Below are positions 7,409 through 63,231 of a stretch of DNA of 64,000 nucleotides, one piece after another. The position numbers and the translations under genes were made by a program. The notes under the pieces are model-generated. The model was not told where the DNA came from, made no database searches, and saw only the letters and a list, made by a program, of their open reading frames with translations. Source of the DNA: Acidimicrobiaceae bacterium (GTDB lineage: Bacteria > Actinomycetota > Acidimicrobiia > Acidimicrobiales > Aldehydirespiratoraceae); assembly GCA_009844405.1 (NCBI GenBank), contig VYBO01000022.1, forward strand, positions 33,878-97,877, given 5' to 3'. How positions within the stretch are numbered: the stretch's first letter is position 1; every line of letters begins with the position of its first letter.

Positions 7409-7464
7409 CGGTGCCGATCGTACCGACGCGGCCCCGGTCCGAGCCACGGATCGGCCCGTTCTTG

Positions 7465-7607
7465 GAGGCCGAGCGGATAGGGAGCGATTGATGAGCATCA
7501 CGAGGCGCGCAGCGAGGCCGTGGCCCGAGCGGCCCGTGAGCGCAGCGAACAAGAGCGGGAATGACGCCGCTGCGACGCGAAGGGCTTCCGCCTACTCGCG
7601 CTCGCTC
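7465..7607 (+). mobile_element. MITE/REP-like element, copy A (long form)
   Basis: Begins GAGGCCGAGCGGATAGG and ends CGCGCTCGCTC. Contains the conserved core GAGGCCGTGGCCCGAGCGGCCCGTGAGCGCAGCGAACAAGAGCGGGA. Flanked by TTG at 7462-7464 and 7608-7610. Confidence 0.7.
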
Positions 7608-7648
7608 TTGATGTAGTTGTTCCGCTCCGAGACGGACAACTACATCAA
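7608..7648. promoter_or_regulatory. 13-bp perfect inverted repeat TTGATGTAGTTGT-N15-ACAACTACATCAA in the uvrB/lacZ divergent intergenic region
   Basis: Arms at 7608-7620 and 7636-7648 are exact reverse complements. The site is AT-rich relative to its surroundings and lies 38 nt upstream of the lacZ start. Confidence 0.4.
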
Positions 7649-7685
7649 GTTGCGGTGAGGGTGCCTCACGTTACGGTTTCGCCCC

Positions 7686-10649
7686 GTGCTGCCGGTGATC
7701 GGAGAGCGACGGCCCTGGGCGGACCCGTCGGTGCTGGAGATGAACCGGCTGGCGATGCACGTCCCGCTGTCGGGGTTCCGCCGCCAGGGACTCGACGGCC
7801 TGTGGTCGCTCGAGTTGTTCGAGACTCCCGACGAGGTGCCGGCCGAGGCGCTGACCGGCATCCGGCCGGACGCTGTGCAGGTGGCCGTGCCCGGCAACTG
7901 GACCATGCAGAACCTCTCGAACGCCCGTGGCGAGGTGTTAGTCGACAGACCCCACTACACCAACGTCCAGATGCCGTTCGACGGCCCGCCGCCGCGGCTG
8001 CCCGACCGCAATCCGGCCGGGGTGTACCGCCGGACGGTGACGGTGCCCGCCGACTGGCACGGCGACCGGACCGTCCTTCACGTGGGCGGCGCCGAGAGCG
8101 TGCATGCGGTGTACGTCAACGGCCGGTTCGCGGGATACGGCACCGACAGCCGCCTGCCCAGCGAGTACGAGGTCGGCCGCCTGCTCACCCGGAAGACCAA
8201 CGAGCTGGCCATCGTCGTGATCCGGTACAGCGCCCACAGCTATATCGAGGACCAGGACCAGTGGTGGATGGCCGGACTGCACCGCTCGCTGTGGATCGAG
8301 TCCCGCCCCAATGGCCACATTGCTGACATCCGGGTGTCGACTGACTTCGATCGGGACACGGTCACAGGGAGGGTGGCTGCGACCGCGGTCGTCGACTTCG
8401 GCGGCATGTCAGCGCAGGGCTGGTCGATGCGGTTCGAACTGCACGATCCCTCCGGCTCCCGGGTGGGCCGCGAGATCGATGCACCTGTGGCCTTCGAGCG
8501 CGTCCAGGAGGCCGGCGAGCATGGGGCGGACGCGTGGTCGGGCGGAGGCCGGCGCGGGGCCGAAGCGGACGCGTGGTCGGGCGGAGGCCGGCGCGGGGCC
8601 GAAGCGGACGCGCGATGGGACCTTGCCCGGGCCGAAGCGTGGAGCGCGGAGACGCCCCGGCTCTACACCCTCGCCGCCGAGTTGGTGGATCCCGGCGGGA
8701 GTGTCATCCAGAGCGAGACGCAGCGGGTCGGGCTGCGCCGGGTGGAGGTGCGCGACCGGCAACTGCTGATGAACGGTCTCCCGATCCGCATCTTCGGCGT
8801 GAACCGCCACGACCATCACCCCGACACGGGCAAGGCCGTGACCGTCGAGGACATGCTGGACGACCTGAGGCTGATGCGGCTCCACAACATCAACGCCGTG
8901 CGGACGTCGCACTACCCCAACGACACCGCCTTCTACGCGCTCTGCGACGAGCTGGGCTTCTACGTGGTGGACGAGGCCAACCTCGAGGGCCACGCCTACG
9001 AGGACACCATCTGCGACGACGACGCCTACCGGGAAGCCTTCGTGGACCGCGGCGCCCGCATGGTGCAACGTGACCGGAACCACCCGTCGGTGATCGTGTG
9101 GAGCCTCGGAAACGAGACCGGCTACGGCGCCAGTCACGACGCCCTGGCCAAGTGGATCCGGGAAGCGGACCCGTCACGACCGCTGCACTACGAGCCGGCG
9201 ATCGACCTCCGGGGCTGGGACGACTGCGGTGAGACCGCCACCGACATCGTTTGCCCCATGTACCCGCAGCTCGACGCCATCCGCGGCTACGGCCAGGCCG
9301 GCGCCGGTCGGAGGCCGCTGATCATGTGCGAGTACAGCCACGCCATGGGCAACAGCAACGGCTCGCTGGCCGACTACTGGGACGTGATCGAGGCCACCCC
9401 CGGTCTCCAGGGGGGCTTCCTGTGGGAGTGGAAGGACCAGGCCCTGCGCCGGCGCCTCCCGGACGGCACGGCGAGGCTCGCCTACGGCGGCCAGTTCGGC
9501 GACGCCCCCCACGACGGCAACTTCGTGGCCGACGGGCTCGTGTCCGCCGACCTGGAGCCCCACCCGGCCATGCGGGAGGTCGCATGGGTGTACCGGCCGG
9601 TCGTGGTCACCGGCGACGGCCGCGGTCTGCGGATCGAGAACCGGCGGGCCTTCACGGGCCTAGCGGACCTGCGGGCCGGCTGGGAGTTGCTCGTGGACGG
9701 CGAGGCCGCCGATGGCGGCGTGCTGGCCGTGCCCGAGGTCGCTGGGCACGCATCTGCGACGATCCCCCTCCCGGAGGCCGCCCTCGATCCGGACCTGGAC
9801 CGCGACGCACATCTCACCGTCCGATGGGAGACCGTTCACGACGCCTGGTTCGCGTCGGCGGGCCATGTGGTGTCCTGGGACCAGATCGAGCTGGCCTGCG
9901 CCGGCGGCCCGGCGAGGCGAGGCCCCGGCGGGTCGCCGGCCGACCACCTGGTCTCCCCCACTCTCAACCTGTGGCGGGCCCCGACCGACAACGACGGCTT
10001 CAAGCTGACGCCCGAACTCTCGGAGCGCCTCGGGGTGGGCGGCCGGGCCCTTCACCGGTGGAGACAGGCCGGCCTCCACAACCGATCGGCCGACGAACTG
10101 GTCGCACACCGCCTGCAGGTCGAGCACGACGATCACGGCACCACCTACCGGCACTCGGTCGAGGTGCCGGAAGCGCTGGCCGACCTGCCCCGGATCGGCG
10201 TGCAGTTCGAGCTGCCTCCCCGGTTCCGCGAGCTCCGCTGGTACGGGCAGGGCCCTCACGAGAACTACCCGGACCGGAACCGCAGCGCCATGATGGGCGT
10301 CTGGCGCGGCCCGCCCGACGAACTGCCCTACCTGGTGCCCCAGGAGTTCGGGCTGCGCACCGGCTGCCGGTGGTTGGAGATCATCGATCCCGAGGGCGGC
10401 GAGGCGGTCCGCATCGGCGCCCTGCAGCCCAGCACGCTGAGCTTCTCGGCGACTCACCACCGTCCGTCGGATCTGTTCGAGGCGCCGACGCAGGCCGAGG
10501 TCCGGCGCCGCGACGGCCTGATGGTGTGCCTCGACGCCGCCCACCGGGGCCTGGGCACCGCCAGCTGCGGACCGGGCGTGCTGCCGGAGTACCGGATCGC
10601 GTCCGGACGCCACGAGTTCGCCTACAGGGTCAGCGTCACACCGGTCTGA
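7686..10649 (+). CDS. lacZ: Beta-galactosidase, glycoside hydrolase family 2
   Basis: 987 aa; NAVRTSHYPND, WSLGNETG (acid/base Glu), MCEYSHAMGNS (nucleophile Glu), C-terminal small-chain domain. Confidence 0.9.
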   Translation: MLPVIGERRPWADPSVLEMNRLAMHVPLSGFRRQGLDGLWSLELFETPDEVPAEALTGIRPDAVQVAVPGNWTMQNLSNARGEVLVDRPHYTNVQMPFDGPPPRLPDRNPAGVYRRTVTVPADWHGDRTVLHVGGAESVHAVYVNGRFAGYGTDSRLPSEYEVGRLLTRKTNELAIVVIRYSAHSYIEDQDQWWMAGLHRSLWIESRPNGHIADIRVSTDFDRDTVTGRVAATAVVDFGGMSAQGWSMRFELHDPSGSRVGREIDAPVAFERVQEAGEHGADAWSGGGRRGAEADAWSGGGRRGAEADARWDLARAEAWSAETPRLYTLAAELVDPGGSVIQSETQRVGLRRVEVRDRQLLMNGLPIRIFGVNRHDHHPDTGKAVTVEDMLDDLRLMRLHNINAVRTSHYPNDTAFYALCDELGFYVVDEANLEGHAYEDTICDDDAYREAFVDRGARMVQRDRNHPSVIVWSLGNETGYGASHDALAKWIREADPSRPLHYEPAIDLRGWDDCGETATDIVCPMYPQLDAIRGYGQAGAGRRPLIMCEYSHAMGNSNGSLADYWDVIEATPGLQGGFLWEWKDQALRRRLPDGTARLAYGGQFGDAPHDGNFVADGLVSADLEPHPAMREVAWVYRPVVVTGDGRGLRIENRRAFTGLADLRAGWELLVDGEAADGGVLAVPEVAGHASATIPLPEAALDPDLDRDAHLTVRWETVHDAWFASAGHVVSWDQIELACAGGPARRGPGGSPADHLVSPTLNLWRAPTDNDGFKLTPELSERLGVGGRALHRWRQAGLHNRSADELVAHRLQVEHDDHGTTYRHSVEVPEALADLPRIGVQFELPPRFRELRWYGQGPHENYPDRNRSAMMGVWRGPPDELPYLVPQEFGLRTGCRWLEIIDPEGGEAVRIGALQPSTLSFSATHHRPSDLFEAPTQAEVRRRDGLMVCLDAAHRGLGTASCGPGVLPEYRIASGRHEFAYRVSVTPV
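8528..8612 (+). repeat. 39-bp in-frame tandem duplication (x2.2) inside lacZ
   Basis: GGACGCGTGGTCGGGCGGAGGCCGGCGCGGGGCCGAAGC occurs at 8528-8566 and 8567-8605, then GGACGCG. It encodes the duplicated peptide (A)DAWSGGGRRGAEA. Confidence 0.9.
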
Positions 10650-10707: not shown

Positions 10708-12804
10708 TCAGGCGGTGTCGAGGTGGATCAGCGCGGCCGTCTCGGGGTTCAGCGGGGGCAGCTGGAGGCCGAGACGGGCCAGATCGTCGCCTCGCAGCAC
10801 CGCGCCCTCGTCCCACCAGGGCGGCGACGAGTGGGTCGGGCCGCTGCGCTCGCCCGGGAGGGGCACCCGCTCTACCCGGTACCGCCGGCCGGGATCTAGC
10901 CCTGGCAGTAGCAGGGGCGGAGGGGTCAGGCTCGGGACCGGCGCAACCACGGCGAAGCTGATCAGCGCCTCCGAGAGGTCGGGCCGGTACACCCCGTGCG
11001 CCGTGTAGGCGGGCTCGGTGTCGAACCGCACCGCGTCGCCGCTGTGCAGCAGGGGCCTGAACCGCTTGTGTACCGATATGGCCTCGGCGAGGTCGTCCAA
11101 GGCCGCGTCTGAGAGTTCGAGCAGGTCGCACTCGACGCCGAGGTGCCCGAACAGAGCGGTTGCCGCCCTGAAGGCGAGAGCGTGGCGCCGGCCGGTGGTG
11201 TGGGAGCGCTCCGGCCCGATGTGGGCCCCCATCATCTCGGGCGGGATCAGCAGCGACGCGCCCCGCTGGATCGCCTGGCGCTCGAGCGGGTCGGTGCAGT
11301 CGCTGGTCCAGGCCCGCTCGGTGCGGCGGAGAATCTCGTGGTCGACCCGGGCCCCGCCGGAGGAGCAGCTCTCGATCTCCACTCCGGGATGCCGCCGGCG
11401 CAGCGCGTCCATGAGCCGGTACACGGCCAGCGTCTGGGCGTGGGTGCCGGCCCGGCCGCCGGCCCCGCCCGCTCCAATATGGTCGCGGTTCATGTCCCAC
11501 TTCAGGAAGGTGATGTCGTGGTCGGCGAGCAGGCTGTCGAGCTGGCCCAGAACGTGGTCGAACGCCTGGGGGCGGGCCAGGTCGAGCACGAGCTGGTTGC
11601 GGGCCAGCACGGGCTCGTAGCCGTCGTTGGCCAGCGCGCACTCGGGATGGGCCCGGTAGAGGTCGCTGTCGGGGTTGACCATGCCGGGCTCGACCCAGAT
11701 GCCGAAGGCCATTCCCAGACCGGTGACGTGAGCGATCAGGGGATCGAGGCCCTCCGGGTGGGCGTCGGCCGACACCGTCCAGTCGCCGAGGCCCGACGTG
11801 TCGTCGCGGCGGGAGCCGAACCAGCCGTCGTCGAGCACGAAACGCTCGATCCCGATCCGGGCTGCCCGCTCGGCCAGCGCCAGCAGCCGGTCGAGGTCGT
11901 GGTCGAAGTAAATGGCCTCCCAGGTGTTGAACACGACCGGCCTCGGCGACCGCGGGTGCTCGGGGCGGGCACGCAGCCGGCGATGGAACTGCTGGGTGGC
12001 TGCGGTCAGCCCCGCCTCGCTGTGGACGGCGACCACCTCGGGGCTGCGGTACGACTCTCCGGGCGCGAGCGCGATCTCGCCGGGATGGAGGAGCTCGCCG
12101 AGTTGCACGTACCGCCGCCCGTCGGGCAGCCGCTCGGCCAGGAGCGCATGGTTGCCGGTCCAGGCGAGGTGAGCGCCCCACACTGAGCCGGTGCTCTCAC
12201 CGAAGCCGGCGTCGCCGGCGAACACCAGCGGCGGATGCTCGTGGGATGTGCGGCCCCGCCGGTTCTCGACGGTGTGCGCGCCCCAGGACCAGGAAGTCCG
12301 CCGCACCTGGAACTCGCGGCCCCAGCGTCCGCCCAGCGTGAGGAGTTCGGAGGCCCGGGCCGGGACCGGCAGGGTGATGCTCATGCCATCGAGCCGGTAG
12401 GGCTCGTCCGGGCTCAGGTTGGCGACCTCGACCCGCACCGACAGGGCATGGTCGAGGCTGAGCGTCGTGGTCAGGGCGAGGCCGGCGACCTCGTCGAGCG
12501 CCTCCACGGTAAGCCGCCCCCCGTCGAGCGCATGCCGGGCGGGCCGGAACCGGGGGGCCCAGTCGCGCCCGTCGGGCCGCGAGCCCAGCAGCCCGGGCCG
12601 TCCCGGGAAGCCGGACCCGTGCTCGGGCACGACCGAGACCGGCGCGACCGTGTCGGGAGCGGCGTGCACCCGTGGACGCTCCAGAGCGGCCTCGAGCGCC
12701 GAGCCGTCGGGCTCGGACAACGGCGCGCCCCAGTGCACGATCTGTGGCGCGCCGTGCGACAGGTCGACCACCACGTCGGCGCCGCGGCCGCGCAGATGGA
12801 TCAT
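10708..12804 (-). CDS. Alpha-galactosidase, glycoside hydrolase family 36
   Basis: 698 aa; FVLDDGWF, FLKWDMNRD, CSSGGARVD are GH36 catalytic-region patterns. Confidence 0.9.
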   Translation of the reverse strand: MIHLRGRGADVVVDLSHGAPQIVHWGAPLSEPDGSALEAALERPRVHAAPDTVAPVSVVPEHGSGFPGRPGLLGSRPDGRDWAPRFRPARHALDGGRLTVEALDEVAGLALTTTLSLDHALSVRVEVANLSPDEPYRLDGMSITLPVPARASELLTLGGRWGREFQVRRTSWSWGAHTVENRRGRTSHEHPPLVFAGDAGFGESTGSVWGAHLAWTGNHALLAERLPDGRRYVQLGELLHPGEIALAPGESYRSPEVVAVHSEAGLTAATQQFHRRLRARPEHPRSPRPVVFNTWEAIYFDHDLDRLLALAERAARIGIERFVLDDGWFGSRRDDTSGLGDWTVSADAHPEGLDPLIAHVTGLGMAFGIWVEPGMVNPDSDLYRAHPECALANDGYEPVLARNQLVLDLARPQAFDHVLGQLDSLLADHDITFLKWDMNRDHIGAGGAGGRAGTHAQTLAVYRLMDALRRRHPGVEIESCSSGGARVDHEILRRTERAWTSDCTDPLERQAIQRGASLLIPPEMMGAHIGPERSHTTGRRHALAFRAATALFGHLGVECDLLELSDAALDDLAEAISVHKRFRPLLHSGDAVRFDTEPAYTAHGVYRPDLSEALISFAVVAPVPSLTPPPLLLPGLDPGRRYRVERVPLPGERSGPTHSSPPWWDEGAVLRGDDLARLGLQLPPLNPETAALIHLDTA

Positions 12805-12918
12805 GCCGATGTGGCCGGGCCCAGTTTCCCGCTCGTGTTCGCTTCGCTCACGGGCCGCTCAGGCCACGGCCTCGCTTGGGCTCGTGCGAAGCTGATCATG
12901 TCAACCCTGCTCGGCCTC
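12805..12918 (-). mobile_element. MITE/REP-like element, copy B (left boundary approximate)
   Basis: Core CCCGCTCGTGTTCGCTTCGCTCACGGGCCGCTCAGGCCACGGCCTCGC. Terminus CTGCTCGGCCTC ends at 12918, directly abutting the permease stop codon. Confidence 0.6.
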
Positions 12919-28112: not shown

Positions 28113-28520
28113 ATGGCCCTCGACAAGCCCTATCTCGACGTCCCGGGGACCACCGTCTTCGACACCGACCAGGCCGCGAAGGGATACCACCTCAACCAGT
28201 TCGCCATGTCCCTCATGAGGGCCGAGAACCGCGAGCGGTTCAAGGCCGACCCCGACGCCTGTCTCGACGAGTGTCCCATGACCGGCGAGCAGAAGCAGGC
28301 CGTGCGCGACCGCGACTTCAACCGCATGATCGAACTCGGCGGCAACATCTACTTCCTGGCCAAGATCGGCGCGACCGACGGGCTCGACTACGTGCAGATC
28401 GTCAGTTCGATGACCGAGAACGACGCCGACGCCCACACCGAGATGATGCTGAACGGCGGCCGCTCGCCCGACGGCAACCGCTACCTCCACGAGTGGCAGC
28501 ACGAGCGCGAGCGTGACTAG
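28113..28520 (+). CDS. ligA: Protocatechuate 4,5-dioxygenase alpha subunit (LigA family)
   Basis: GYHLNQFAMSLMRAENRERFKAD ... GGNIYFLAKI is a LigA-domain pattern. GGAG lies 6 nt upstream of the ATG. Confidence 0.85.
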   Translation: MALDKPYLDVPGTTVFDTDQAAKGYHLNQFAMSLMRAENRERFKADPDACLDECPMTGEQKQAVRDRDFNRMIELGGNIYFLAKIGATDGLDYVQIVSSMTENDADAHTEMMLNGGRSPDGNRYLHEWQHERERD

Positions 28521-28642
28521 GTGAGAGCCCTACGCTCCGCATCGGTGTGTCACTCCCGCTCTTGTTCGCTTCGCTCACGGGCCGCTCGGGCCACGGCCTC
28601 GCCCGTGCGGGCCCGGGTCGGCCCGCGGTTCCGCTCGGCCTC
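28503..28642 (-). mobile_element. MITE/REP-like element, copy C (long form) in the ligA-ligB spacer
   Basis: GAGCGCGAGCG ... core CCCGCTCTTGTTCGCTTCGCTCACGGGCCGCTCGGGCCACGGCCTCGC ... GGTTCCGCTCGGCCTC. It overlaps the last 6 codons (including the stop) of ligA. Confidence 0.65.
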
Positions 28643-33773: not shown

Positions 33774-34157
33774 CTATGGCTGTTCCTCCTCCAAGAGCCG
33801 CTTGGCCTGCACCAGCAAGTCGGGAAGGTCGGTCTGAATGATGTCCCAGATCACATCGTCATCGAGTCCCAGGTAGGCGTGCGCCAATCGATTCCGGGTT
33901 GCGATCACCTGTCGCCACTTGATCTGAGGATTCGCCTCGCGAACCTCGTTAGGAACATGAGTCGCGGCCTCTCCGATGAGTTGGAGGTTTCTCAGCGTGG
34001 CATCGTATGTGCGCCCGTCGGACGTGAAGGCGTCCTGTTCAAAGCCATCGGTGTACCTGACGACTCGCAGGGCGAAATCAATCATGTCCTGAATGTAGAG
34101 CCTCCAGTGACGAGCCTTCTCGCGAGCGTCAGACATCGATGGCCTCTCGCTCAACAT
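33774..34157 (-). CDS. hepT: HepT (DUF86, HEPN RNase) type VII toxin
   Basis: Rx4HxY HEPN motif in ATRNRLAHAYLGLD; 127 aa; overlaps the MNT gene. Confidence 0.85.
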   Translation of the reverse strand: MLSERPSMSDAREKARHWRLYIQDMIDFALRVVRYTDGFEQDAFTSDGRTYDATLRNLQLIGEAATHVPNEVREANPQIKWRQVIATRNRLAHAYLGLDDDVIWDIIQTDLPDLLVQAKRLLEEEQP

Positions 34158-34479
34158 ACGGACGGAGTTCGGCGCGTAGTGCCTTGTCGGTCACAAGGTC
34201 CACACGCCGACCCAGCAAATCCTCGAGATAGAACTGAACCCCAAAGTAGGCCCGAGATGTCGTCGGCCCGTCGAACCGCACGAGAAGGTCAAGATCGCTA
34301 CCGGCGCTCGCCTGATCCCGCGCCACCGAACCGAACAGTGAGATGCTGATGACGCCGAACCGCTCGGCCAGCGTTGCCTTATGCGCCCGCAGTGCTTCTA
34401 GGACTTGATCCCTCCCGAGTTGGTCCACAGGCCTACTTCTTTCGTTGATCCACTCGCACACGTCCCGTGAGTAGCGCAT
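34129..34479 (-). CDS. mntA: MNT minimal nucleotidyltransferase antitoxin
   Basis: SLFGSVARDQASAGSDLDLLV (GSx10DxD). Likely GTG start at 34428, just after the hsdS stop. Confidence 0.85.
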   Translation of the reverse strand: MRYSRDVCEWINERSRPVDQLGRDQVLEALRAHKATLAERFGVISISLFGSVARDQASAGSDLDLLVRFDGPTTSRAYFGVQFYLEDLLGRRVDLVTDKALRAELRPYVEREAIDV

Positions 34480-35759
34480 CCGAAATCGACGTTACGACAG
34501 TCGAAAGAACGGCGCGCTCCTCGCGGGCTCGCTCAATGCTGGCATCCACACTGTCGAGAACCGCAGCGATAGCTGTCTGCTCCTCGGGAGTCGGGAGACC
34601 AAATGTGTACGACGCCACATCATCTGGCCGCACTGCCGGATAAGCCTGTCCAGTTGTTGCCTTCTCGAGGTGGCTAGCGAAGGGAGCAGACATCACATGT
34701 TGGTAAGCGTATGAGCCACTGACACCCTGCCACGCCGAGAGTACAGCGAAACCCGACGACGCGATCAGGTTCGCTGGTGCCTCCCTAATGCGGGCGAAGC
34801 CCCGAAGGTTGGGACGAACAGTGCTGACTAGGATGTCCCCGCTCGCTACTCGTCGTCTCGCTCGGCTAGGTGCCCTGTCCGAATTGATCTCGCGAGCACC
34901 GAGACCGTGGAGGACTCCGTCAGCATGGAGACGCTCGGCTAGGTGCCCTGTCCGAATTGATCTCGCGAGGCTCGGCGACCTCACCCGGAGCGACGACTGC
35001 CGTCAAGTCAAGGTAGCGGATGGTCTCCGATTCACTCCCAAGTGACCACGAACATGGATTAATGCCGCACACATCCCCCAAGCGTACGGCCTGCCAGGAA
35101 GCGGGGATGGTGCCCACGCCGGGCACTTCCTTCCACTCTGAGTGCTGGCCGGGGAGACCTCGGGTCAGGAGTTCGTGAAGAAGGGCGTCACGGAGACGCT
35201 CGGTAGCTGCGATGACTTCGTCCGCGCTCTCGATTGCCTCGTCAATCGAGTCCAACACCGCAGCGATAGCTGTCTGCTCAGCCAGAGGCGGAAGTGCCAC
35301 CGGCAGAGACGAGTACTCGGTAGCGTTGATATTCGGCTGAGCACCTGCACGCAACATTGAGGCGACCCATCTGCGGTAGAACTGTCCGCGGGTCCAGAGT
35401 TCTAGGAATCTCGGGACGGCAGCGTTGCTCCGCGCCCTGAACCGAATCAGGTATCCCGCATACACACATGGGCCGTCCTCCGGTCGATAGAGATACGACC
35501 TGCCTACACTCCCACTCCTAGCGAAGAGCAGGTCGCCTGCTTGGAGTTCATAGCCTTCGACCCTCTCGGGATCGGCCGAACGAGCGTCAGTTCGACGAAG
35601 GTGGCCGTCATCCGTGATATCGGTGATGCGAACGTAACGAGGCTGGTTCGGGTCGAACGGTTGCGCCGGCGCGCCAGCACCGTACCGGGGAACGTCACAC
35701 ACCTTGCCGAGGCGGGCAATACGCCAGCCCTCGGGGACTTGGGTAGCGTCGATTCTCAA
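34433..35759 (-). pseudogene. hsdS: Type I specificity subunit HsdS (two target-recognition domains, TRDs), frameshifted by a 73-bp duplication in TRD2
   Basis: N-part (ORF 34920..35888, TTG start at 35759) and C-part (ORF 34433..34984) both carry the conserved region EQTAIAAVLDS(I/V)D. Both contain REINSDRAPSRA. Removing 73 bp gives a 417-aa ORF. Confidence 0.85.
34859..34969. repeat. 38-bp perfect direct repeat at 73-bp period inside hsdS
   Basis: CGCTCGGCTAGGTGCCCTGTCCGAATTGATCTCGCGAG at 34859-34896 and 34932-34969. Confidence 0.95.
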
Positions 35760-36260
35760 CTCGTGTAGGCGGGCTCGGGGAACCCGCGGACGGCTTCGGG
35801 TACCCGGACCTCGATCTCTACGAACTCGAACCGTGTAGCGACTGGTGGCACGTCGTCCCCGTGCTCCAGATACGACTCCATGATCCAATCCTCAATCGGC
35901 TCGTTGTGGTAGGCGATCGCCTCATCGATGGACATCTTGGGCGCCGGCAGCGGGTCACCGTCCTCCAGCATGCTCTCGATGTGGAACGTTAGAGGCCCCG
36001 CGGATAGGCGGGCGACCCGGCCCATACGGGGCGGGGCCGTGGCCCGAGCGGCCCGTGAGCGAAGCGAACAGGAGCGGAAATGACCACCCCGCGCCGCGAT
36101 CGGCCGCCGATCAATCCGCGCTCGCTCTTAGGGCTTCGTCGATCATCTCGAGCATCTCCTCCCAAGTGTCGCCGACGCTCACGCAGACAGGTGCATCAGG
36201 CACATATGCACACCAGTTGCTGGGGGCCTTCTCGAATACGACCGCGTACGTCAACTTCAT
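35756..36260 (-). pseudogene. HicB-family antitoxin paralogue interrupted by MITE copy D
   Basis: N-fragment MKLTYAVVFEKAPSNWCAYVPDAPVCVSVGDTWEEMLEMIDEAL (36260 down to 36111, stop in the element). C-fragment TFHIESMLEDGDPLPAPKMSIDEAIAYH (ORF 35756..36025). Both are collinear with the neighbouring hicB. Confidence 0.8.
35992..36127 (+). mobile_element. MITE/REP-like element, copy D, inserted in the hicB paralogue
   Basis: GAGGCCCCGCGGATAGGCGG ... core ... CCGCGCTCGCTC; TTA at 35989-35991 and 36128-36130. Deleting 139 bp leaves a 366-nt intact ORF. Confidence 0.85.
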
Positions 36261-36296
36261 TGGAACCGGTCCAGCACAAACGCCGAGCCTCGCAGA

Positions 36297-36668
36297 TCAT
36301 CCCACTTGGGCAGGCTCGGGGATCCCCCGGACGGCTTCAGGCACCCGAACCTCGATTTCGACGGGCTCGATCCGTGTCGCCAGAGTGGGCGGCTGATCGC
36401 TGAAGTCCAGTCCGAAGTCGCTGAGGTCACAGTCGTCGCCGATGAAGTCCAGATGGTAGGTTAGGGCCTCTTCGATAGACATCTTCGGTGCCGGGATCGG
36501 CTCCCCGAATTCCAGCATGACCTCTATATGGCCGGTCAGGGCCTCGTTGATCATCTCCAGCATGTGGTCCCATGTGCCGCCGACACTCACGCAGCCAGGC
36601 ACATCGGGCACATATGCGTCCCAGCCGTTGGCATCCCGGCAGAACACGACGATGTACTTCAGCTTCAT
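36297..36668 (-). CDS. hicB: HicB-family antitoxin
   Basis: 123 aa; MKLKYIVVFCRDANGWDAYVPDVPGCVSVGGTWDHMLEMINEAL is a typical HicB N-terminal domain; directly downstream of hicA. Confidence 0.85.
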   Translation of the reverse strand: MKLKYIVVFCRDANGWDAYVPDVPGCVSVGGTWDHMLEMINEALTGHIEVMLEFGEPIPAPKMSIEEALTYHLDFIGDDCDLSDFGLDFSDQPPTLATRIEPVEIEVRVPEAVRGIPEPAQVG

Positions 36669-36687
36669 GATCTCTTCCTTCTTGATC

Positions 36688-36862
36688 TCATCTCAAGCCC
36701 GCTTGCCGCAGGATACCTTTCCAAGTCTTCTCTGGCAGTTCCTTGCCGAGCGGGCCTGGAATCGTCACTGTGCCCGGCTTCACGGGATGCCGGAACTGGC
36801 GGTGGCTGCCACGCGTGCGGACATGGAACCAGCCGTCGCGCTCGACGGTGCGGATCGCCTCT

Positions 36863-39432: not shown

Positions 39433-39519
39433 TGGTGCCCGGAGAGGGATTCGAACCCTCACACCCTTGCGGGCGGCGGATTTTGAGTCCGCTGCGTCTG
39501 CCAGTTCCGCCATCCGGGC
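39433..39519 (-). tRNA. tRNA-Leu (anticodon CAA), class II with long variable arm, encoded CCA
   Basis: GCCCGGATGGCGGAACTGGCAGACGCAGCGGACTCAAAATCCGCCGCCCGCAAGGGTGTGAGGGTTCGAATCCCTCTCCGGGCACCA. Acceptor GCCCGGA/TCCGGGC, anticodon loop CTCAAAA, T-arm GAGGG-TTCGAAT-CCCTC. Confidence 0.95.
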
Positions 39520-44919: not shown

Positions 44920-45383
44920 TGATTGCTCCTTTGCGATGACGGCGCCGCTTCCGGCACCGATTGCGGCCCGGCACTATAGGGCGAGACCCGCCGCGCCCCG
45001 GGGATGCTCGCGGAATCGGGGCCGCGGGGACTGCGATCGCCGCGCCGGGGCGGAGGGCGTCAGCGGCGGACGATCACCGACGAGCCGTGCCCGAACAGGC
45101 CCTGGTTGACGGTGATGCCCACTCTGGCCCCGCCGCACAGCAGTTCTTGTTGGGGACGCTGGGCGGCGCCGGGTTCGGACGGCGCGTGTGAGCGCCGGAT
45201 CGGCGGTGTCGGGCTGCGCCGTGGCGGCTATGCGCCCGGGCCTTGTGCCCACCTGCGGTGGCGGATGCATCAGATGAATGGTCGCCGCCTTCGGCGAGCA
45301 TGGGCCCGGTCCTGCCTGTAGCCCCGACATTGGGGCCGCCATTCCGCTCGGCCTCCGGGTCCCCGGGATAGATTCGCGTATCG

Positions 45384-52115: not shown

Positions 52116-52127
52116 CTAGATGAGGTC

Positions 52128-52196
52128 CAGTCATGTCCGCTCCTGTTCGCTGCGACCGGGGGGCCGCTCGGGCCACGGCCTCTCAAGCTCGGCCTC
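52128..52196 (-). mobile_element. MITE/REP-like element, copy E (short form; left boundary approximate)
   Basis: GTCCGCTCCTGTTCGCTGCGACCGGGGGGCCGCTCGGGCCACGGCCTCTCAAGCTCGGCCTC. Its terminus overlaps the stop codon of the 52195..52551 gene. Confidence 0.55.
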
Positions 52197-54335: not shown

Positions 54336-54375
54336 CGAGGGGTCGGAGGGCACCGTGGTCAGTGCGATCGCCGAC

Positions 54376-54504
54376 GAGTGCGAGCCGGTCGCGGCGCAGC
54401 GATGTCTCTCCCGCTCTTGTTCGCTGCGCTCACGGGCCGCTCGGGCCACGGCCTCGCTCGGCTCCCTGCGATACTCATGAGTCGCTCCGTGCCCGCTCGG
54501 CCTC
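54376..54504 (-). mobile_element. MITE/REP-like element, copy F (long form)
   Basis: GAGTGCGAGCC ... core CCCGCTCTTGTTCGCTGCGCTCACGGGCCGCTCGGGCCACGGCCTCGC ... GCCCGCTCGGCCTC. It overlaps the last 9 codons and the stop of the MerR gene 54475..55266. Confidence 0.65.
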
Positions 54505-56112: not shown

Positions 56113-56153
56113 GCCCCGAAGCTACCCCATACAGGCGACGAACTCGCGACCGG

Positions 56154-56243
56154 CCTGGGCTCGAGCGGCCCGTGAGCGGAGCGAACAGGAGCGGGAGACC
56201 TGGGCTCGAGCGGCCCGTGAGCGGAGCGAACAGGAGCGGGAGA
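56154..56243 (+). repeat. Perfect 45-bp tandem duplication of the MITE core (copy G)
   Basis: CCTGGGCTCGAGCGGCCCGTGAGCGGAGCGAACAGGAGCGGGAGA at 56154-56198 and 56199-56243. Confidence 0.9.
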
Positions 56244-56347
56244 CACGCAGCGGCGGGCGCCGATACGGGTGCTTTCCCGTCGCCGGGCAGGCCCGGTTGG
56301 TGTTATCGTGCTGTTGCAAGCGTTTACGAGGTTTCGGGAGAGGTCCG

Positions 56348-63161: not shown

Positions 63162-63231
63162 GCCCGCGTCTCCCGCTCCTGTTCGCTGCGCTCACGGGCC
63201 GCTCGGGCCACGGCCTCGCAAGCTCGGCCTC
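63162..63231 (-). mobile_element. MITE/REP-like element, copy H (short form)
   Basis: GTCTCCCGCTCCTGTTCGCTGCGCTCACGGGCCGCTCGGGCCACGGCCTCGCAAGCTCGGCCTC fills the gap between two convergent stop codons. Confidence 0.55.

Follow-up and report, generated by a model that had tools for sequence, protein, structure and literature searches.

Between a uvrB gene and a GH2 lacZ-like gene, the 64,000-nucleotide stretch of contig VYBO01000022.1 of an Acidimicrobiaceae bacterium (hereafter the window) carries a short non-coding sequence whose relatives are scattered over the rest of the stretch. What kind of repeat is this, does it move, and does its host make use of it? A reading made from the letters of the window alone (the sequence-only reading) had described a dispersed family resembling MITEs (miniature transposable elements with inverted repeats) or repetitive extragenic palindromes (REPs), with imperfect terminal inverted repeats and 3-bp target duplications. 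This interpretation as a mobile dispersed family is largely right, and it is the 3-bp duplication and the REP-like label that need softening. Copies have been gained and lost between related genomes at precise junctions, and we consider it probable that they form a family of small, non-coding, non-autonomous mobile elements, MITE-like in behaviour and composite in architecture like the BOX elements of streptococci, that are mobilised in trans.

Identification and distribution of the repeat

The window has a G+C content of about 70%. When at most two mismatches were allowed, a 47-nucleotide (nt) core was found at 7514-7560(+), 12827-12873(-), 28554-28600(-), 36033-36079(+), 54409-54455(-) and 63171-63217(-), and not once in 100 dinucleotide shuffles of the window. 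A search with a 21-nt sub-core added two further tandem cores (56158-56223) and a profile search a degenerate one (52137-52182(-)), which brings the total to nine cores at eight loci, called copies A to F, locus G and copy H below. Full-length profiles built from other genomes returned exactly those eight window loci and nothing else. The multi-copy non-coding family of eight loci proposed by the sequence-only reading was thus confirmed by core, sub-core and profile searches alike. Stacked in one orientation, all copies found here and elsewhere measure 70-150 nt and share a layout of 5′ arm (module A), core (module B) and 3′ arm (module C); in the window the 5′ ends read GAGGCC(GA/CC)GCGG... 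and the 3′ ends ...CGCGCTCGCTC. The same DNA is present in eight independent assemblies at 99.3-100% identity, so the copies are not an assembly artefact of one metagenome-assembled genome (MAG). One of the matching records, VXVY01000032.1 of the sponge-derived MAG GCA_009836165.1, does not differ from the window at all.

Outside the window, a scan of 185,579 species-representative genomes for exact matches to 24 specified core bases (within core positions 20-45) gave matches in at least 114 stretches of other genomes, and every one listed is an Acidimicrobiia MAG; the loci retrieved in this way carry L-numbers below. The host groups among the matches listed are Ca. Aldehydirespirator(aceae), Ca. 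Poriferisodalis, Microthrixaceae and sponge bins, and the identical core occurs in species of at least three Acidimicrobiales families (Aldehydirespiratoraceae, Poriferisodalaceae and Microthrixaceae). No core match came from viral contigs or from plasmids, and spread by phage or plasmid was rejected on this ground. A profile search of the window together with the 114 loci (0.94 Mb in all) found 167 copies. The density is one copy per 7 kb in the window, and near the retrieved matches there is about one further copy every 20 kb, which by extrapolation corresponds to hundreds of copies per genome. A literature search found the core and end sequences in no paper, and no paper connecting Acidimicrobiia with MITEs. 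The repeat is apparently an undescribed interspersed family, so far limited to Acidimicrobiia MAGs, of which the identifiable ones are sponge-associated.

Gain, loss and target of the element

The sequence-only reading had suggested looking for empty sites in relatives, and both filled and empty orthologous sites were seen. In syntenic comparisons among the retrieved loci, 10 of the 16 insertions or deletions of at least 35 nt are the element itself; about nine of the syntenic sites are polymorphic for its presence and about six are shared. In the cleanest pair, the filled allele of L108 reads AAGCTA[GAGGCC…core…GGGAGA]TAGCGCGCC and the empty allele of L068 AAGCTAGCGCGCC, so that a 5′ arm plus core has entered a CTAG, with a duplicated T, TA or near-CTA ((C/A)TA). 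The comparison of L113 with L084 fits a 3-nt duplication (CCG), and tandem long copies share their junction triplet, as in L086 (TTA-copy-TTA-copy-TTA).

The flanks of the long copies with a canonical 3′ end (36-45, depending on the analysis) define a palindromic target, with C(57%)-Y(92%)-N-A(76%) before the element and T(72%)-N-R(85%)-G(75%) after it. In 24 of 37 copies, where 12 were expected, the two flanks agree in the central base N (position -2 = +2; p=1e-4), and all control registers are non-significant. This agreement supports a CTNAG/CYNRG-like target in which a short stretch with N at its centre is duplicated. The best 2-3-nt registers all fit a 3-nt window, and the data are equally compatible with a stagger of 1, 2 or 3 nt.

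A general, longer target duplication specific to each copy was also considered and set aside, the own-copy score (4.61) exceeding the other-copy score (4.28) only marginally over the family (p=0.05). Individual cases, in which the 5′ flank is similar to the 3′ end of that very copy, are nonetheless striking: 14 nt at both L017 and L102, 11 of 13 at L055, and 11 nt at L071, where a duplicated stop/start junction flanks the element. Solo 5′ boxes, tried as the ends of a parent insertion sequence (IS), proved to be mostly chance matches in coding sequence ('EAE') or mini-elements; over the 0.94 Mb, no two 5′ boxes lie inverted to each other at the spacing of an IS, and segments of 0.5-3.5 kb are repeated only as synteny blocks.

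How could such elements move? In the scenario that we favour, insertion would be catalysed in trans by a DDE transposase recognising both ends, which would cut a short palindromic CTNAG/CYNRG-like target with a stagger of 1-3 nt, as IS5/PIF-Harbinger or IS630-type elements do. In a genome of 70% G+C, T/A-containing targets of this kind would be found mostly at stop codons and in their surroundings, and this would explain where the copies lie. The near-invariance of the core would reflect a requirement for mobilisation together with gene conversion among hundreds of copies, or else a use by the host.

Conservation of the core

Identity stays at about 93-100% in the core and at about 50-75% in the arms, orthologous sites included. 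Mean pairwise identity in the two main arm classes, types II and I (defined below), is 0.97 and 0.94 for the core, 0.73 and 0.51 for the left arm, 0.63 and 0.59 for the right arm, and 0.57 and 0.59 for the last 17 nt, respectively. The window copies, which were not selected by the genome scan, behave in the same way: copies A and F are identical over the core (47/47) and share 37/49 and 34/49 positions in their arms, and copies C and D share 44/47 core positions and 33/43 and 33/52 in the arms. As retrieval relied on an exact match to core positions 20-45, orthologous pairs were scored on core positions 1-19 only. There, 124 of 134 positions are identical (92.5%), compared with 194/301 and 194/299 (about 64-65%) for the 40 nt on either side of the core and 80-90% for the mostly coding flanks. 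Copies that did not themselves serve for retrieval also keep the core (44/47 at L070:457 and 38/39 at L106:3661), with flanks at 80-87% and arms that can no longer be aligned.

These figures bear on the mobile-element explanation, and together with several other observations they weigh against it. Conservation is far higher in the centre than at the termini, opposite to what a typical MITE shows. Orthologous copies keep the core while their arms diverge, which points to a constraint on the core after insertion, by selection or by gene conversion among copies; pure selfish transposition does not predict this. Identical flanking triplets are found in only 6 of the 36-45 copies (about 2 expected), so that an exact 3-bp target duplication, which holds for copies A and D with their TTG/TTG and TTA/TTA flanks just as the sequence-only reading described them, is a minority case in the family. 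Several empty alleles are untidy: those of L058, L092 and L004 keep GAGGCC(G)-like or 5′-box-like remnants, and that of L013 differs by a replaced 14-nt segment. Some of the polymorphisms may therefore be internal deletions or homology-guided events and not insertions. Finally, the IS with matching termini that the sequence-only reading had proposed to look for did not turn up, and no autonomous element or transposase with matching ends was found in the 0.94 Mb.

A possible, if rather doubtful, alternative is that the 39-47-nt core is a cis-element used by the host, a site for a conserved DNA- or RNA-binding protein serving in chromosome organisation or mRNA fate, with a role like that of the REPs and bacterial interspersed mosaic elements (BIMEs) of E. 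coli. The arms and their mobility would then be the mere vehicle of its past spread, which makes the idea compatible with a mobile family, and a use by the host would explain why the core is conserved. The core is identical across at least three families and the arm subfamilies are lineage-specific; the contrast between core and arms is seen both within the window (copies A and F) and at orthologous sites; the motif GAGCG(G) recurs in the 5′ box, the core and the 3′ end; and naked cores exist, some directly upstream of start codons. However, around 60% of the syntenic sites are polymorphic for presence or absence, the orientation bias is only 2:1, and the neighbouring genes are functionally unrelated, which argues against a role for every copy, and the spacing to neighbouring start codons is variable. 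Moreover, the conservation of the core is partly a matter of ascertainment, an exact match to 24 of its bases having been used for retrieval, and gene conversion among hundreds of copies could homogenise it. We regard as unlikely, and put forward more tentatively still, the joint claim that the core is a domesticated genome-wide cis-element of sponge-symbiotic Acidimicrobiales, a putative protein- or RNA-binding site in hundreds of intergenic copies, held by purifying selection since before the split of Aldehydirespiratoraceae, Poriferisodalaceae and Microthrixaceae. If true, the repeats would form a new functional system, REP/BIME-like but differently built.

Modular anatomy and changes in core number

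Module A begins (A)GAGGCCGAGCGG, with the consensus GAGGC(C/T)GAGC(GG). Its length falls into distinct classes: about 52 nt in type I (copies A, F and B of the window), about 41 nt in type II (copies C and D), and shorter forms of 14 nt (short; copies E and H) or of 18 nt with GAGGCTGAGCC (type III). The core, module B, measures 45-47 nt and reads GAGGCCGTGGCCCGAGCGGCCCGTGAGCGNAGCGAACANGAGCGGGA; an element has zero to about five of them, in tandem with a 45-nt period. Module C is a 3′ arm of about 47 nt with the terminus CCTATCCGCGCnnnnTC(T) and the pattern CCGCGC....TC. Type I has 50 copies and type II 43; another 22 are short or belong to type III, and in 52 cases a core has no 5′ box within 60 nt. 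The subfamilies and short forms that the sequence-only reading had distinguished in the window were recovered across genomes as these arm lengths, and they are lineage-specific: types I and II belong to Aldehydirespirator(aceae) and the window, type III to Poriferisodalis, and the Microthrixaceae MAG has naked cores only. The imperfect terminal inverted repeats also held up. The outer 17 nt of modules A and C, GAGGCCGAGCGGATAGG and the reverse complement GAGCGAGCGCGGATAGG, match at about 11-12 of 17 positions, a repeat extended by a conserved A at -1 and a conserved T at +1, the 3′ end itself being variable. The motif GAGCG(G) is shared by the 5′ box, the core (three times) and, inverted, the 3′ end, and this recurrence makes it a candidate for a repeated site of protein binding.

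The majority of copies have a single core. At one extreme, core-less minis consist of the two ends only (L002:6180 and L028:6753); at the other, the core is duplicated inside the arms (L080, L076) or forms stand-alone perfect arrays of 44-45-nt units, as at 56154-56244 in the window (2.0 copies), L103 (about 5) and L107 (3-4), and partial internal duplications of the core are found in L011, L018 and L109. Array length varies at orthologous sites (196 nt in L103 vs 85 nt in L003), and L029, L040 and L080 have 1, 1.4 and 2 cores. The core number therefore changes through tandem duplication and deletion. The short, core-only, core-less and multi-core forms would all be secondary products of slippage or recombination at direct repeats inside the element (GAGGCC, GAGCGG). 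At L089:4490-4530 it is the 5′ box by itself that stands in tandem (a 13-nt unit, AGAGG(C/T)CGAGCAC, in about four copies), so this end module too can expand by slippage.

In the window, the core-only locus noted by the sequence-only reading at 56154-56243 is a perfect array of 2.0 copies with a 45-nt period (locus G). Two assemblies of near-identical strains have runs of N inside this array (L121:636-735 and L122:691-700). The array is probably longer than the two copies of the window, short-read assemblies collapsing or breaking there. We did not retain a strain-level variable-number tandem repeat (VNTR) at this locus: the two assemblies suggest longer arrays, but their N-gaps make the copy number unreliable.

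Arrays of this kind recall the interspersed repetitive units of mycobacteria (MIRUs), which are tandem units located in the intergenic regions of operons, oriented like the genes and containing an open reading frame (ORF) that overlaps the neighbouring stop and start codons (PMC12548453). With MIRUs the present repeat shares an actinobacterial host, units within a 45-77-nt range, variable arrays, a position at stop/start junctions and, in some cases, small coupled ORFs (PMC12548453). Could it then be a MIRU-like minisatellite, a unit of about 45 nt at gene junctions that changes by slippage and recombination, preserves translation through small ORFs and needs no transposase? The perfect 45-nt arrays (56154-56244, L103 with five units, L107, L076), the differences in array length at orthologous sites (L103/L003; L029, L040, L080), the N-gaps inside the array in two assemblies, the copies abutting stop codons, the mini-ORF of copy E coupled to gcvT, and the 11-nt duplication of a stop/start junction at L071 would all fit. 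Yet most copies consist of one unit between inverted-repeat arms, a third of them are antisense or located in convergent or divergent regions, and some loci only are tandem. Nor do the copies contain a conserved ORF or start codon, ATG, GTG, GAC and AAC all occurring after the core. We therefore hold the minisatellite explanation to be improbable. Homology to mycobacterial MIRUs was likewise dropped: core positions 25-47 plus the next 5 nt are identical to MIRU292 of M. avium subsp. paratuberculosis (PMC7977185) in 36 of 48 columns, which is not significant, the local alignment score of 23 being reached by 160 of 1000 dinucleotide shuffles. The ordered blocks GAGCGCAGCGA … GAGCGG … ATGAC that MIRU292 shares with the core are a curiosity between two actinobacterial intergenic repeats.

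In one copy, at L096:7126-7263, the core is interrupted by an 83-nt low-GC insertion (TAGCCCTATGTCAAGC…GGTGGTACA) flanked by an 8-nt duplication of core sequence, CCCGTGAG, and this insertion looks like a different small mobile element nested in the repeat. Another intergenic sequence, at L070:2244-2377, is a small hairpin element unrelated to the present family, in a tandem pair (CAGCCGAATTGGCAGCGTCTTGCTCGCTATGCGTGCATCCTGCTGCCAATTCCC), which is absent from the orthologous site in L106; it appears to represent a second intergenic repeat family in these genomes.

Position relative to genes

Codon-position G+C was used to call the coding strand around all copies. Element and upstream gene have the same sense in 65 copies and are antisense to each other in 34, and the co-directional contexts comprise 23 sense and 12 antisense cases. 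Of 33 copies with the upstream gene in sense, 12 have its stop codon beginning at -3 to -1 relative to the first G of the element, 22 have it within 9 nt, and 6 contain it. The mixed orientation noted by the sequence-only reading is thus correct, but it is not random: there is a sense bias of about 2:1, and copies are packed against stop codons. The contexts themselves are mixed (3′, 5′, convergent and antisense), with functionally unrelated neighbouring genes.

Portable functions were also tried and discarded. A portable ribosome-binding site does not agree with the distances from core to downstream start, which are scattered, AGGAG being found at a Shine-Dalgarno distance in few copies (L001, L103). 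A portable promoter or terminator was rejected too, no consensus of either sort coinciding with the copies. Some naked, arm-less cores are found directly upstream of start codons.

Some copies contribute to coding sequences. At 28503-28520 the final codons of ligA and its stop (…HERERD*) consist of element sequence, read opposite to the element strand, and at 54475-54504 the element supplies the tail of a MerR-family gene (…EAERARSDS*). In the window MAG, gene ends are thus being rewritten by the repeat at the C-termini of ligA and of the MerR-family gene, and possibly at the start of a GH36 alpha-galactosidase gene, whose predicted start codon at 12804 is overlapped by the 3′ arm of copy B.

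Absence of a conserved RNA structure

Do the copies act as RNA? The location of some of them in 5′ regions (of the lacZ-like gene, an msiK-like gene, gcvT and gcvP) and the ability of the arms to pair into a long stem would suit a structured non-coding or cis-regulatory RNA present in many copies, be it a leader, a riboswitch, a small RNA or a terminator. However, Rfam gave no relevant family, either for the window at gathering score or for copies A and G at E<=10; a tRNA gene at 39436-39519(-) is the sole match at gathering score in the window, and no glycine riboswitch is reported there. Neither the consensus nor the window copies surpass dinucleotide shuffles in fold energy (z from -1.7 to +0.6), and the core falls short of them: its minimum free energy is -13.3 kcal/mol, that of the shuffles -16.6 on average (z +1.2; +1.4 for the reverse strand).

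Covariation leads to the same picture. With RNAalifold, neither the core nor the type II alignment showed compensatory pairs; in type I, compensatory changes occur in the terminal stem only, in copies that were partly selected by complementarity. When the complementarity of the ends was measured without this bias, at fixed offsets, the own-copy value was 6.71 of 9 pairs against 6.39 for other copies (p=0.01), an effect that is real but tiny and compatible with subfamily structure. To this must be added that no terminator or promoter consensus is found and that copies occur in mixed orientation in 3′, 5′, convergent and antisense contexts. A structured RNA is accordingly very improbable and the reading essentially excluded, in agreement with the sequence-only reading, which had argued against a leader or riboswitch and had proposed a check against known structured RNA families.

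The copies of the window

Copy A, a long type I copy at 7465-7607(+), comprises a 5′ arm (7465-7513), core (7514-7560) and 3′ arm (7561-7607), and lies between the divergent uvrB(-) and GH2 lacZ-like(+) genes with flanks TTG/TTG. Starting at its last base, a perfect 14-bp inverted repeat, CTTGATGTAGTTGT…(15 nt)…ACAACTACATCAAG, occupies 7607-7649. It includes the TTG duplication of the copy and is about 40 nt upstream of the lacZ-like gene; from its sequence it looks like an operator for a dimeric regulator, at the edge of which copy A would have inserted. Inside the lacZ-like gene, 8526-8612 is a perfect tandem duplication of 39 nt (13 codons; 2.2 copies, 100% match).

Copy B, a type I copy with diverged arms, had been placed at about 12805-12918; the locus is real, and the long type I profile extends it to 12795-12918(-), with the core at 12827-12873. 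It begins directly past the TGA of an ABC sugar permease gene and has the GH36 alpha-galactosidase gene on its other side. Copy C (long type II, 28503-28642(-), core 28554-28600) lies between ligA(+) and ligB(+) and is antisense to them. Copy D (long type II, 35992-36127(+), core 36033-36079), flanked by TTA/TTA, lies in an island of lower GC with the gene for the S subunit of a type I restriction-modification system and a HicB-like gene. This segment, 34000-36700, has a GC content of 0.61 vs about 0.70, with the specificity subunit at 34920-35888(-), the HicB-like antitoxin at 36297-36668(-) and copy D between them, and is probably a defence or mobile island.

In copy E, a short form at 52120-52196(-), the 5′ box GAGGCCGAGCTTGA is joined directly to the degenerate core (about 52135-52182). 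The copy stands between a hypothetical gene, whose TGA it overlaps, and gcvT, whose start is 20 nt further on; AGGAG-N5-ATG opens a 6-codon ORF in it, the TAG of which abuts the gcvT ATG. Copy F (long type I, core 54409-54455) is also real, but its end is probably near 54362 and not at 54376 as proposed, which gives 54362-54504(-); the MerR-family gene upstream reads into its 5′ arm and stops there, and a phosphoribosyltransferase gene lies on the other side. Locus G, the pair of arm-less tandem cores, occupies 56150-56244(+) (100% match over 56154-56244) between the divergent gcvH(-) and msiK/malK-like ABC ATPase(+) genes. Copy H, a short form at 63162-63231(-), consists of a 5′ box, TTGC and the core (63171-63217), in a convergent context with the stop of an ABC permease gene directly before it and a GFO-family oxidoreductase gene beyond.

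A solo terminus had also been suspected at 45342-45355. The 5′-box match is true (GAGGCCGAGCGGAATGG at 45355-45339), but the element there is a weak core-less candidate (45236-45355(-), possible 3′ end CCATTC...ATCCGC, upstream of gcvP) that is not significant with the full-length family profiles. All three glycine-cleavage loci of the window, gcvP, gcvT and gcvH, have a copy or candidate directly upstream (45355, 52120-52196 and 56150-56244).

Comparison with known repeats

With bacterial MITEs such as Correia, RUP, Nezha and ERIC, the family has in common small size, lack of coding capacity, dispersal in many copies, inverted repeats at the termini, a T/A-containing target that undergoes a short duplication, sites filled in some relatives and empty in others, and the extension or truncation of neighbouring ORFs. 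MITEs are usually AT-rich, fold tightly and are most conserved at their termini, whereas the Acidimicrobiia element is GC-rich, folds weakly and is most conserved in its centre. REPs are imperfect palindromes of 20-40 nt, often in inverted pairs. Like the REP, BIME and REPIN (RAYT) systems, the present repeat is an abundant intergenic sequence following genes, with a conserved portion possibly bound by a host protein; in contrast, its core is non-palindromic and folds worse than shuffles. Of the double label MITE/REP-like, the first half is probably right and the second does not fit. Some insertions can be read as protein tails, here the C-termini of ligA and the MerR-family gene, as with the Rickettsia palindromic elements, except that the Acidimicrobiia copies are overwhelmingly intergenic and not in frame within genes. 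The 135-nt type II consensus is open in one frame.

The closest architecture is that of BOX. In the pneumococcal BOX elements, boxA and boxC enclose tandem boxB units whose number varies, A1C1 forms exist, and mobilisation by an IS has been proposed (PMC3049150). The likeness to BOX, as found in Streptococcus pneumoniae and S. suis, extends to end modules of about 50 nt with inverted-repeat similarity, a middle module of about 45 nt that is absent, single or tandem in numbers varying between strains, A1C1-like minis, an intergenic location, the capacity to alter gene ends, and a putative mobilising IS. BOX hosts are low-GC Firmicutes and the Acidimicrobiia host has 70% G+C; given this base composition and the unrelated host lineages, homology is not expected and the likeness is one of architecture. 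The Acidimicrobiia middle module also differs in being the most conserved part of the element, in occurring alone in arm-less arrays, in not being predicted to fold tightly, and in being a single core combined with several arm subfamilies.

Implications

One repeat family accounts for most of the large intergenic length differences between the related sponge-symbiont Acidimicrobiia genomes compared here (10 of 16). Spurious ORFs arise from it, its tandem arrays make short-read assemblies collapse or break, and annotators of these uncultured symbionts need a model of it. The core is a lineage-specific marker and a possible handle for VNTR-type strain typing. A centre frozen across families, between drifting transposon-like ends, is unusual: either the centre is what the machinery of mobilisation recognises, or the core has been taken into the service of the host. 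This frozen core, shared across families, is the feature of the repeat most worth following up.

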